NCBI GenBank assembly: GCA_963784975.1
Contig: CAWAUK010000044.1
Coordinates: 33,523-97,522, forward strand
Reading direction: 5' to 3'
Source of the DNA: an uncultured Thermoleophilia bacterium
GTDB lineage: Bacteria; Actinomycetota; Thermoleophilia; UBA2241
Length of the DNA stretch: 64,000 nt
Below, in pieces: positions 32,266 through 34,118 of the stretch; position 1 is the stretch's first letter, and each line of letters opens with the position of its first letter. The notes below the pieces were generated by a model. That model had not been told where the DNA came from. It was given only the letters and a program-made list of their open reading frames with translations, and made no database searches. The position numbers were made by a program, and so were the translations under genes.

Positions 32266-33267
32266 ATGTCCGATCAGGCCAGCTTCCCGGGCGCGACCAC
32301 GCGCATCGCCATCATCGACTTCCAGAGTGGGCAGACCGTCGACGGCGTCTACGCCTGCTCTGAGCTCGCAGCCGCCACCGACCGCAACGGCAAGGCCTAC
32401 CTGCGCCTCAAGCTGCGCGACGCCACCGGCGAGGTAGCCGCCATCCACTTCGATCCGTCCGACGACGCGCTTGGCGTCACCGCCGGCGACGTCGTCTGCG
32501 TCGGCGGCACCTACAGCGTCCACCCCCAGTACGGCGCGCAGATCCAGGTCCGCCGCTTGCGTGCCGCCGACGACGAAGAATACGACGCCGGCGACCTCGT
32601 GCAGGTGTCCCCGGTCGGCACCGCCGAGCTCGCCGAGCGCCTGCACGCACTCATCGATTCCGTGGAGGAGCCGCACGTGCGCGCGCTCCTGGAGCGCGCC
32701 TTCGACGGCTCGCGCGAGCCCGGCGCCACGTTCGCCGTCGCGCCGGCGGCCGTGCGCAACCATCACGCCTACCGGCACGGCCTGCTCGAACACTCGGTCA
32801 TCGTCGCCGAGGCGGCGGCGGGCGTGGCGTCGCGGTTCGACTCCGTCGACCGCGACCTCGTCGTCGCCGGCGGCCTGCTGCACGACATCGGCAAGACCCA
32901 GGCGTACACCAGCGGCGGCCTCGCCCCGCAGATGACCGACGCCGGCCGTCTTCACGGCGAGATCGTCATCGGGCACGACATGGTGCGCGAGCTCATCGAG
33001 GAGGACGCGGACTTCCCGCCCGAAGCCGCCAAGCGGCTGCGCCACATCATCGTGGCGCACCACGGCATGCGCGAGAAGGGCAGCCCCGTGGTGCCCCAGA
33101 CGCGCGAGGCGATCATCGTGCACTACTGCGACGACATGACGGCTCGCATCGGCGCCATCGACGACGCCGAGGCGGCTACCCCGGCCGGTGAGCATTGGTC
33201 CAGCCGCATCTTCATGATCGACGCGCCGGCCTACCTCGGCCCGCGCGATGAGCGGGACGAGGACTAG
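32266..33267 (+). CDS. yhaM: 3'-5' exoribonuclease YhaM/Cbf1 family (OB + HD domains)
   Basis: YLRLKLRDATG OB fold, PAAVRNHHAYRHGLLEH, LLHDIGK, HIIVAHHG, GSPVVP. Confidence 0.85.
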   Translation: MSDQASFPGATTRIAIIDFQSGQTVDGVYACSELAAATDRNGKAYLRLKLRDATGEVAAIHFDPSDDALGVTAGDVVCVGGTYSVHPQYGAQIQVRRLRAADDEEYDAGDLVQVSPVGTAELAERLHALIDSVEEPHVRALLERAFDGSREPGATFAVAPAAVRNHHAYRHGLLEHSVIVAEAAAGVASRFDSVDRDLVVAGGLLHDIGKTQAYTSGGLAPQMTDAGRLHGEIVIGHDMVRELIEEDADFPPEAAKRLRHIIVAHHGMREKGSPVVPQTREAIIVHYCDDMTARIGAIDDAEAATPAGEHWSSRIFMIDAPAYLGPRDERDED

Positions 33268-33713
33268 CCCCAGATCTCCCTACAGTCCTCGAGCACCACG
33301 GACGCGTGTCCCTTGGCCTTCACGGCCGGATACACCTTGCGCAGCGTTCCGTCGGGGTCGATGAGCCAGGTCGTGCGCTTGGCCACGCCGACCATCGGCC
33401 GCGCGACGCCGAAGGCGCTCGCCACCGTGTGGTCGCCGTAGTCGCTGATCAGCGGCATCTTGAGGTCGTACTTCCGCGCCCAGCGCTCGTTGGCGGCGGG
33501 CTTGTCGACGCTCGCGCCGATCACCTGCACGCCGAGGGCGGCGAACTCATGAAGCAGGCCGTTGAACTCAACGGCTTCGGCCGTTCAGCCCGCGGTGTCG
33601 GCTTTGGGATAGAAGAAGAGGACGGTGCGCCTGCCCGGCGCGCCGAGGTCGAAGGTTGCTCCGTCGTAGGAGGCGCCGGTGACCGCCGGCGCCTTGTCGC
33701 CTTCCTTGAGCAT
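33264..33713 (-). CDS. bcp: BCP/PrxQ peroxiredoxin with in-frame UGA (selenocysteine) at 33585-33587
   Basis: MLKEGDKAP...FFYPKADTAG-UGA-TAEAVEFN...VIGASVD...KRTTWLIDPDG; both halves in the same frame, 149 aa. Confidence 0.9.
33551..33578 (-). promoter_or_regulatory. candidate bacterial SECIS hairpin
   Basis: GCCGUUG-AGUU-CAACGGC stem-loop, loop starts 16 nt after the UGA; T-ending codons are atypical for this genome. Confidence 0.6.
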
Positions 33714-33851
33714 CGGGACCCCTCCCGTGTGGTCGCGGGCTGCGGCGCCTGGACGGGGCCGCGTTTCCCTTCGGCAGTCTGCATGCCCCCGGCGCACCGC
33801 GACGAAACGATGCCGCCCGCGCCGGTCGGCCGGTCGAGATAGACTCCGCTG

Positions 33852-34118
33852 ATGGCACGCAAGCTGAGAGTCAGCGTCGACTACGACAGGTGCACAGGCG
33901 TCGGCGCCTGCGAGCAGGTCTGCCCCGAGGTCTTCTTCATGAACGAGGAGGGGCTCCCGGACGTGCTCGAGGAGGAGCCCCACGAGACGCTCTGGGCCGC
34001 CGTCGAGCGGGCCGAAGAGGCCTGCCCGGAGGAGGCCGTGATCCTGGAGTGGGTGGAGGACCAGGCCGATGCGGACGCGCGTCGTGGTCGCGACGCCCCG
34101 CGCCGCCCTCCTGCCTGA
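33852..34118 (+). CDS. ferredoxin (3Fe-4S type)
   Basis: VDYDRCTGVGACEQVCPEVF...ACPEEAV. Confidence 0.88.
   Translation: MARKLRVSVDYDRCTGVGACEQVCPEVFFMNEEGLPDVLEEEPHETLWAAVERAEEACPEEAVILEWVEDQADADARRGRDAPRRPPA

Follow-up and report, generated by a model that had tools for sequence, protein, structure and literature searches.

The minus strand of the window, the whole stretch of 64,000 nucleotides that was analysed, carries one intact AhpC/TSA gene at 33264-33713 with a TGA inside its reading frame. We consider it very probable (roughly 0.93), judging from sequence, that the gene encodes a Bcp/PrxQ thiol-dependent peroxidase whose peroxidatic residue is selenocysteine (Sec). The selenoprotein interpretation, put forward in an earlier note on this DNA, is strongly supported by the Sec machinery of the genome, the conservation of the UGA codon, the conservation and covariation of a hairpin and the existence of Cys-form relatives. 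The refuting conditions that the note had named, checked on assembled contigs in the case of the codon itself, all turned out in favour of this interpretation.

With TGA read as U, the frame from 33713 to 33264 yields a 149-residue protein containing ...FYPKADTAG-U-TAEAVEFNGLL.... There is only one in-frame TGA (codon 43, 33585-33587), and the frame ends at TAG (33264-33266). The Pfam AhpC-TSA domain (PF00578) covers residues 5-126, across the TGA, with an E value of 3.8e-31. Translation and domain match bear out the earlier note in that the frame is intact past the UGA to 33264 and the UGA occupies the peroxidatic position of PxxxTxxC. The features are:

33264..33713, minus strand: coding sequence of the predicted Sec-containing Bcp/PrxQ-type peroxiredoxin, 149 codons plus TAG (33264-33266), ATG at 33711-33713 (reading frame, Pfam, AF2, Foldseek)
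33719..33726, minus strand: possible Shine-Dalgarno-like element GGGAGGGG, 5 nt upstream of the ATG (suggested by its sequence)
33594..33608, minus strand: codons Pro36...Thr40 of the PxxxTxxU active-site motif; P36 and T40 at least 90% conserved in the 89-row alignment
33585..33587, minus strand: UGA codon 43, probably read as Sec at the peroxidatic position (TGA in orthologs, Cys in Cys forms)
33576..33584, minus strand: 9-nt spacer ACGGCCGAA from the UGA to the hairpin, of invariant length in the ungapped 83-row alignment
33558..33575, minus strand: predicted bacterial SECIS hairpin with 5' arm GCCGUUG (33569-33575), loop AGUU (33565-33568) and 3' arm CAACGGC (33558-33564) (conservation and covariation)
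33570..33585, minus strand: alternative hairpin AACGGC-CGAA-GCCGUU, peculiar to this allele and taking in the A of the UGA (fold energy, alignment)
33375..33377, minus strand: codon of Arg113 within AKRTTWLID, the active-site arginine, which is at least 90% conserved and lines up with the R of ...ERSTFLID in Bcp structures
33282..33284, minus strand: codon of Cys144 (TGT), the only cysteine, in the C-terminal helix and not conserved (sequence and AF2)

Public proteins mostly represent the 3' part of this gene. Among the best 120 matches in the protein collection, 118 are ORFs of 81-117 residues that start at an internal start codon, so the expectation that pipelines would call a pseudogene was wrong. 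No curated NCBIfam model scored over its cut-off; the best rows were PrxQ/Bcp models (83.8 vs 260 and 82.5 vs 140 bits). Because the matches are fragments and no model reaches its cut-off, gene callers miss the catalytic half of this antioxidant enzyme, whose lineage is widespread in soil and sediment. The short ORFs could also be taken at face value, with termination at UGA43 and a product that is either the 88-residue C-terminal ORF from GTG 33530 or a 42-residue peptide. Database ORFs are gene-caller output, however, and no proof of a product. The 88-residue piece is missing about 40% of the fold along with Pro36, Thr40 and the catalytic residue, and the sequence before the TGA is conserved in frame as protein. 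We regard a short product as extremely improbable.

The surroundings of the gene are conserved among relatives. Across 28 loci of the genus, an MBL-fold gene is present in all, an HD-domain gene in 26 and a divergent ferredoxin in 19. The ferredoxin was considered as a functional partner and rejected, as it occurs at 19/28 loci only and the arrangement is ordinary synteny among close relatives.

Conservation of the UGA codon and the Sec machinery

The UGA codon is retained throughout the Sec-form homologs. All 29 extracted orthologs of the same genus have TGA at codon 43. All 83 parsed Sec-form homologs, which belong to two families of the class and reach down to 38% identity, have it at the corresponding place in the alignment. 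Each of the 37 homolog matches with at least 56% identity has exactly one TGA. In the class sample, the same is true of the 55 listed matches with at least 50% identity, every one of which comes from family f1; a match is present in 51 of the 55 f1 genomes. A hand count of the listing for family f4 gives one TGA in 34 of 40 genomes with a match. Cys aligns to the TGA column in 19 parsed Cys forms (the Cys-form homologs include L102-L107) and in P0002 and P0003. UGA/Cys pairing, a check suggested at the outset, is accordingly seen as UGA in close and distant orthologs and Cys in the Cys-form homologs. The organisms are represented by metagenome-assembled genomes (80 of 80 listed records).

The codon is also stable among assemblies. 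Spanning contigs from three DNA runs and one RNA run have no listed difference at 33585-33587; as assembled contigs they report presence and not allele frequencies, and 27 differences fall outside the listing. In the RNA runs, 0.04-0.06 of the words are present. RNA-run contigs over the gene come from relatives (6-18 differences) and may contain DNA, and we therefore claim no expression for the source organism.

A pseudogene would likewise show a single in-frame stop, and the TGA could have arisen by nonsense mutation or through faulty assembly or sequencing. The genome comes from a bin that is 83% complete with 5.9% contamination, and another TGA-containing candidate in it, described below, does look degraded downstream. 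This explanation is contradicted by the TGA being kept in all parsed Sec-form homologs, by protein conservation that is intact on both sides of it (genus orthologs; 89-row alignment), by contigs of three further DNA runs that span the codon with no listed change there and by synonymous sites that are frozen exactly beneath the hairpin. We give this explanation next to no weight.

The genome encodes the components needed for Sec. The search for selA, selB, selC and selD that the earlier note had called for found selA (440 bits), selB (313 bits), selD (319 bits) and two tRNA-Sec matches (65.9 and 64.9 bits). SelD is itself of the Sec type, with its own in-frame TGA at codon 16. TGA is the main stop of the genome and ends 367 of 473 long ORFs, so the code is not reassigned. 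SelA occurs in 206 of 301 sampled genomes of the class, and the statement that Sec use is uncommon in Actinomycetota fails here. The Sec trait is common in the class, and a cysteine-free Sec-Bcp has been retained in two of its families.

A genome-wide scan for selenoproteins required at least 40 coding-like codons on each side of a TGA. It returned 30 candidates, mostly adjacent genes in the same frame, and the convincing ones are the peroxiredoxin gene and an FdhA-like molybdopterin oxidoreductase. In the latter, the TGA falls within ...HCARTUH... and is followed 11 nt later by a hairpin. The scan misses N-terminal Sec sites such as that of selD and thus does not describe a complete selenoproteome. 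A DUF72-like candidate on contig C30 was rejected as a selenoprotein: its Pfam match spans just 94 of the profile's 217 positions, and the sequence further downstream looks out of frame.

The hairpin downstream of the UGA

The predicted SECIS hairpin overlaps codons Ala47-Val-Glu-Phe-Asn-Gly52. The earlier note had described GCCGUUG-AGUU-CAACGGC with a G in the loop, and this structure was found on the minus strand at 33558-33575. Its distance of 16 nt holds from the UGA to the loop, but the stem begins 9 nt after the A of the UGA. Of the rare T-ending codons mentioned with it, one (GTT, Val48) lies inside the hairpin, whereas CTT and CAT lie further downstream and are peculiar to this allele.

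The hairpin is conserved together with the UGA, as a bacterial SECIS should be. A 5-bp core starts 11 nt after the UGA and all five of its pairs are present in 81/83 Sec forms; the AGUU loop is invariant (83/83). RNAalifold predicts the same core. The named helix has 92.5% of cells paired against 85.2% in shuffles, a value reached by 0/500 shuffles. Its covariation score of 0.194 compares with 0.079 in shuffles (0/500) and with at most 0.098 when the 3' arm is slid. As the 83 sequences are related, these shuffle statistics overstate significance. Compensatory double changes occur at four pairs in 30 cells (for example C-G in 58 and G-C in 24), and one split between f1 and f4, at one pair, accounts for 24 of the 30 cells.

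Codon use beneath the hairpin is constrained. Among the 51 f1 orthologs, codons 46-52 are GAA (50/51), GCC (51/51), GTT (51/51), GAG (51/51), TTC (51/51), AAC (49/50) and GGC (47/51). The six codons under the hairpin are thus frozen at synonymous sites, while codon entropy is about 1-1.6 bits at other fourfold-degenerate codons of the gene. The full core persists in one of six Cys forms of the same clade, having been lost in the other five, and in none of 13 CxxxxC Bcp proteins.

UGA43 might instead be decoded as Trp, Cys or Gly without any part for Sec, either because a suppressor or near-cognate tRNA reads it or because the lineage treats UGA differently. The Cys forms of the clade are functional alternatives, and the Sec reading is a prediction from sequence. 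This view is opposed by the many long ORFs that end in TGA and by the complete selA/selB/selD/tRNA-Sec set. It is also opposed by the decay of the hairpin where TGA has become TGY and by the position of the loop G-U: counted from the UGA, it falls at nt 21-22 in the peroxiredoxin gene, at nt 21-22 in the genome's own selD and at nt 23-24 in its FdhA. Decoding as another amino acid appears very unlikely, and Sec remains our reading of the codon.

The competing hairpin AACGGC-CGAA-GCCGUU that had been noted over the UGA does exist, at 33570-33585. At -8.3 kcal/mol it is less stable than the SECIS hairpin (-11.2 kcal/mol), and it depends on G33581 (Ala45), which is unique to this sequence among 83 aligned Sec forms, the relatives having A. 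When 54 nt of this allele are folded locally, the structure of lowest free energy (-20.9 kcal/mol) uses the alternative pairing, including the UGA. A ribosome positioned on the UGA would presumably melt it. A regulatory role for the competing hairpin was rejected because it is confined to this allele.

Protein family and proposed catalytic cycle

The peroxiredoxin belongs to the Bcp/PrxQ subfamily, on the basis of fold and sequence, and is a member without a resolving Cys. The AF2 model has a mean pLDDT of 97 and places U43 at the beginning of helix 41-52. Bcp/PrxQ structures are the top PDB matches both in Foldseek (TM 0.84-0.89) and by sequence (E 1e-20 to 1e-13). A resolving Cys is absent from either usual Bcp position (CxxxxC or helix alpha3), where Val48 and Ala79 are found. 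The replacement of the CxxxxC resolving Cys by Val, as first noted, is confirmed: Val48 lies five residues after the peroxidatic site and is encoded by GTT in 51/51 f1 orthologs. Since 1-Cys Bcp proteins are known, the missing residue does not exclude Bcp membership. The single Cys reported near the C-terminus is present (Cys144) but is not invariant; a Cys falls within the last 12 residues in 25 of the 52 Sec forms from f1 and in none of the 27 from f4. No Cys at all is found in 41 of 83 Sec forms.

We infer SelB binding, selenium incorporation, peroxidase activity and the identity of the reductant as follows. The hairpin 9 nt 3' of UGA43 (7-bp stem, AGUU loop, G-U at 21-22 from the U of the UGA) would be bound by SelB with Sec-tRNA(Sec). 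SelB would deliver Sec at UGA43 in competition with release factor 2. The selenolate, at the N-terminus of helix alpha2 and beside Pro36, Thr40 and Arg113, would then attack the peroxide and form a selenenic acid. Because the usual Bcp positions hold no resolving Cys and half of the Sec forms are cysteine-free, an external thiol, most likely thioredoxin, would have to reduce the oxidised selenium directly, in a 1-Cys-type ('1-Sec') cycle.

We lean slightly towards a history in which the Sec form is ancestral to a Bcp clade of two Thermoleophilia-type families. In this '1-Sec' peroxidase with a single selenol and often no cysteine, the SECIS would have stayed frozen within the helix alpha2 codons (EAVEFN) from the family split onwards, and repeated Sec-to-Cys reversions would have been followed by decay of the hairpin. 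If true, nature has run a replicated experiment in this clade on what a peroxiredoxin gains from Sec, and comparative data alone define a compact SECIS of 5-7 bp with an AGUU loop and a 9-nt spacer. With the nested Cys revertants, the catalytic benefit of Sec could be tested in matched pairs.

Comparison with known selenoproteins and peroxiredoxins

Two papers catalogue a Sec 'Peroxiredoxin (Prx)' with a TxxU motif (PF00578/COG1225, Bcp) as a bacterial selenoprotein family (PMC13188914; PMC9312934). A third counts 91 Sec-Prx proteins in 78 organisms (PMC5029168), and a fourth counts 12 proteins with 5 Cys-to-Sec events (PMC1794560). Set beside this catalogue by description, the protein in the window shares the AhpC/TSA domain, the PxxxTxxU motif with peroxidatic Sec, a downstream SECIS and Cys homologs at the same column. 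Unlike the catalogued proteins, its clade is Thermoleophilia-type, without a resolving Cys and often Cys-free. No paper on a Sec-Bcp from Thermoleophilia turned up in the literature search.

PrxU of Eubacterium acidaminophilum is likewise a peroxiredoxin with Sec as the peroxidatic residue. It was reportedly shown by experiment to be a Sec-peroxiredoxin, in work attributed to Sohling et al. in 2001. The window protein scores 42.2 bits against the PrxU model NF040737 (233 positions; cut-off 270) and therefore belongs to a different Prx subfamily. Prx-SUH is also a redoxin-fold selenoprotein, but its motif is CxxU rather than TxxU, and the window protein scores 38.5 bits against its model (NF045827; cut-off 298).

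Cys-type Bcp/PrxQ proteins of solved structure were compared from Burkholderia ambifaria (5enu), Xanthomonas campestris (PrxQ, 5iiz/3gkk), Sulfolobus (Bcp1, 3drn) and M. tuberculosis (BcpB, 5epf). They share the FYPK..T.G(C/U)T.E and R.T(F/W)LID motifs with the window protein. The solved proteins have a peroxidatic Cys and most have a resolving Cys, whereas the window protein has Sec and, five residues on, Val48. Ala79 aligns with the position mutated in the C84S structure 5iph.

The SECIS of E. coli fdhF is a stem-loop about 11 nt after the UGA, in which loop nucleotides G23 and U24 contact SelB. The hairpin in the window likewise lies directly 3' of the UGA inside the coding sequence and has an apical-loop G-U, here at nt 21-22. 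It differs in its shorter spacer (9 nt), its 4-nt AGUU loop and the lack of an evident bulged U. The known picture of bacterial selenoproteins is unchanged by a Thermoleophilia Sec-Bcp: Sec-peroxiredoxins are already known as a kind, and what is new is a mis-annotated member in uncultured Thermoleophilia-type Actinomycetota.

An in-frame TGA in a Bcp-type peroxiredoxin gene

The window encodes a peroxiredoxin whose frame crosses a TGA at the site of the peroxidatic residue. Its gene has no immediate neighbour on the same strand, and an MBL-fold hydrolase gene comes after the neighbouring ferredoxin gene.

33713 to 33264, (-) strand: coding frame of 149 sense codons, a single frame
33711-33713, (-) strand: start ATG, with GGGAGGGG just before it
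33585-33587, (-) strand: TGA, codon 43, the sole in-frame TGA (translated as U)
33264-33266, (-) strand: stop TAG, the end of the frame
32266-33267, (+) strand: HD-domain gene, convergent, on one side
33852-34118, (+) strand: small 4Fe-4S ferredoxin gene, divergent, on the other side

These neighbours recur in genus relatives (HD 26/28, MBL 28/28, ferredoxin 19/28), as expected among close kin, and we claim no functional link.

With TGA as U, the protein reads MLKEGDKAP...FYPKADTAG-U-TAEAVEFNGLL...CREIWG. The earlier note had proposed a selenoprotein split by the ORF caller, and this is borne out: the standard ORF list cuts the frame into a 5' ORF, which the TGA terminates, and an 88-residue ORF from GTG 33530, and the Pfam domain AhpC-TSA spans the TGA (residues 5-126, E 3.8e-31). 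Judged from sequence, the selenoprotein gene is real and intact, belongs to a known family and is mis-cut by gene callers.

The TGA is retained in relatives. A search of 60 relatives found a match in 33 of the 36 same-genus genomes, and each of the 37 listed matches with at least 56% identity contains exactly one TGA. It falls at codon 43 in 29/29 extracted orthologues (a set that leaves out L039, a partial locus), with the protein conserved on both sides. A class survey drew an even sample of 301 genomes, with hand counts from 150 listed rows and 44 further matches beyond them. In family f1, a match was found in 51 of 55 genomes, and one TGA is present in each of the 55 listed matches that reach 50% identity. 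Family f4 has a match in 40 of 55 genomes; among the matches listed, 34 of these genomes have one TGA and 6 lack it, and no listed match from f2, f3, f5, f7, f8 or f9 has a TGA. After 73 more loci were added, 102 homologues were parsed, comprising 83 Sec forms (TGA at codon 43) and 19 Cys forms; left out were L080, a Sec form clipped at the locus start by the search pattern, and three tandem paralogues. The UGA/Cys pairs that the earlier note suggested seeking do exist, as two full-length Cys forms in the protein collection (79% and 77% identity) align their Cys to U43. At 33585-33587 no difference is listed for the contigs that cover the codon, which come from three additional DNA runs and an RNA run.

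The top NCBIfam rows for the protein are the PrxQ and Bcp equivalogs, every one under its cut-off. A phmmer search of PDB sequences ranks Bcp proteins first (Burkholderia 5enu, 1e-20; Xanthomonas campestris Bcp/PrxQ, about 2e-19). An AlphaFold2 model that uses an alignment of 89 homologue rows (mean pLDDT 97, pTM 0.92) places residue 43 at the start of helix 41-52, and its best Foldseek PDB matches are all Bcp/PrxQ structures (TM 0.84-0.89). The active-site set is complete, with Pro36, Thr40 and Arg113 each at least 90% conserved in this alignment. No resolving Cys was found at either usual Bcp position: Val48 stands five residues past the peroxidatic residue, and in the alignment Ala79 corresponds to the substituted Ser of the X. 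campestris C84S structure. Of the 52 f1 forms, only 25 have an equivalent of the window protein's Cys144, and cysteine is absent altogether from 41 of the 83 Sec forms (17/52 in f1, 24/27 in f4). These counts argue that the predicted catalytic cycle is independent of an internal resolving thiol and cannot rely on one.

A putative SECIS hairpin and a competing fold

A putative SECIS hairpin follows the UGA.

33558-33575, (-) strand: hairpin GCCGUUG-AGUU-CAACGGC, beginning nine nt past the UGA

Across the 83 Sec forms, aligned without gaps, neither the AGUU loop nor the G-C pair that closes it varies. Pairing in the 7-bp helix holds for 92.5% of cells versus 85.2% in shuffles, and 0/500 shuffles attain the observed value, a control that overstates significance because the Sec forms are kin. 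Both-sided changes affect four helix pairs in 30 cells (e.g., C-G 58 and G-C 24, U-A to C-G, G-C to A-U), 24 of them at a single pair, where f1 and f4 differ. Shifting the 3' arm by 1-3 columns lowers pairing to 19-56%, and an independent RNAalifold prediction recovers the inner 5 bp. A full set of five standard core pairs is present in 81/83 Sec forms, 1/6 same-clade Cys forms and 0/13 Bcp proteins of the CxxxxC type. Across 51 f1 orthologues, codons 46-52 are nearly fixed at synonymous sites (GCC, GTT, GAG and TTC each 51/51), GTT being a rare Val codon elsewhere in the window gene; fourfold-degenerate codons outside the hairpin vary freely. Counted from the U of UGA, the loop G-U occupies nt 21-22, as in selD of the window's own genome (G000), and nt 23-24 in the FdhA gene of that genome.

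The competing hairpin that the earlier note placed over the UGA, AACGGC-CGAA-GCCGUU, is present and its pairing includes the UGA (-8.3 kcal/mol versus -11.2 for the SECIS hairpin). The minimum-free-energy structure of a 54-nt local fold extends it (-20.9 kcal/mol). It needs G33581 (Ala45, GCC); at this position A (Thr45, ACC) is found in relatives and in contigs from two further runs, so the hairpin is created in this allele and is not a conserved feature among relatives. A ribosome with the UGA in its A site would cover the UGA and the 5' codons of the alternative pairing. Since this pairing thus lies inside the decoding ribosome, we infer that it does not compete when the UGA is decoded.

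Selenocysteine machinery, distribution and evolution

G000 (3.61 Mb, 77 contigs, 70% G+C, 83% complete) encodes all the machinery that the earlier note proposed to look for: selA (440 bits), selB (313 bits, above cut-off), selD (319 bits, one in-frame TGA) and tRNA-Sec (selC), with two matches above the Rfam gathering score. Contig C41 carries selD, selA, selB and one tRNA-Sec copy.

C41:29487-30374, (-) strand: selD, TGA at codon 16 (C41:30342-30344; ...AAKSG-U-AAKLG...)
C41:7-100, (-) strand: tRNA-Sec copy 1
C45:3733-3826, (+) strand: tRNA-Sec copy 2
C48:40965-43748, (+) strand: FdhA-like molybdopterin oxidoreductase (L122), 927 codons, N-terminal Fe-S domains, TGA at C48:42090-42092
C30:1383-1946, (-) strand: DUF72-family frame (L123), TGA at residue 48 (...YAERG-TGA-DCVEVNYTF...)

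The selD gene is itself a predicted selenoprotein gene, with a short hairpin (loop CGUGC) about 10-12 nt past its TGA. The two tRNA-Sec copies differ very little, and one of them is right at a contig end. They could represent a single locus that was assembled twice, or two strains binned together (bin contamination 5.9%).

A coding-potential scan of G000 for TGA codons with coding-like flanks recovered the window gene and the FdhA-like gene. In the latter, the Pfam Molybdopterin domain runs across the TGA (...IDHCART-U-HAP...) and a 7-bp hairpin, GGUCGCC-GGUCU-GGCGACC, lies 11 nt downstream, making it a clear second selenoprotein candidate. The DUF72 frame matches just 94/217 profile positions, looks frameshifted past the TGA and is probably a broken gene or assembly error. 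Of the 473 long ORFs that trained the scan, 367 terminate in TGA, which is thus the ordinary stop and is not reassigned.

SelA occurs in 206 of the 301 class genomes (f1 50/55, f3 48/52, f4 42/55, f6 24/24). Sec use is therefore common in this class, and the earlier note's view that it is uncommon in Actinomycetota fails for the class sampled. In a 185,579-species genome collection, 106 stretches match the UGA-plus-hairpin pattern exactly. The 80 records listed are all metagenome-assembled genomes, titled Thermoleophilia bacterium (42), Actinomycetes, Actinomycetota or Actinobacteria bacterium (35), and Gaiellales bacterium, Deltaproteobacteria bacterium and bacterium (one each).

A quick maximum-likelihood tree of 104 proteins, rooted on an outgroup and with many forks lacking resolution, splits 13 CxxxxC Bcp proteins from a 91-row clade (SH-aLRT 100) in which every one of the 83 Sec forms falls, together with 8 Cys forms without resolving Cys. 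Cys forms sit at several places within the Sec forms, and the Sec/Cys label requires 7 changes across the tree, 6 of them within this clade. The simplest reading would be one Sec gain before the f1/f4 split, then several Cys reversions; the common SECIS position and loop fit a single gain.

A paralogous Sec-Bcp occurs in four same-genus genomes (L053, L054, L055 and L100 in G020, G025, G006 and G071). It has an insertion of about 10 residues before Sec (WFSPKGG...DRL.PAWSP-U-T...), has lost the canonical PxxxTxxU spacing, retains the TGA and hairpin, and forms a supported clade (SH-aLRT 99). It was not found in the window's genome. Three tandem AhpC/TSA paralogues lie directly upstream of Sec-Bcp in f1 genomes.

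G035:C107:10810-11253: L043
G062:C36:65552-65980: L084 (Pfam 6e-15)
G089:C3:55798-56226: L088

Their identity is 36-40%, the peroxidatic site has no Cys and no TGA (e.g., ...FFYREAGSPASADL...), and they are possibly a non-catalytic redoxin-fold partner.

Comparison with known selenoproteins

The gene merits recording for its annotation, its compact, well-supported SECIS and a single-selenol design that dispenses with cysteine and has natural revertants to Cys. Our literature search found no paper on Sec-Bcp in Thermoleophilia. The window Sec-Bcp is no surprise to a specialist. Passages of PMC13188914 and PMC9312934 place 'Peroxiredoxin (Prx)', PF00578 or COG1225 (Bcp) with motif TxxU, among the experimentally supported prokaryotic selenoprotein families, citing the E. 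acidaminophilum enzyme. Excerpts of two surveys count 12 Sec-Prx proteins (PMC1794560) and, later, 91 (PMC5029168). By NCBI's models the window gene belongs to neither PrxU (42 vs cut-off 270) nor Prx-SUH (38.5 vs cut-off 298), both scores being far under. It has all sequence-level hallmarks of the catalogued Sec-Prx family (PF00578/COG1225, TxxU).
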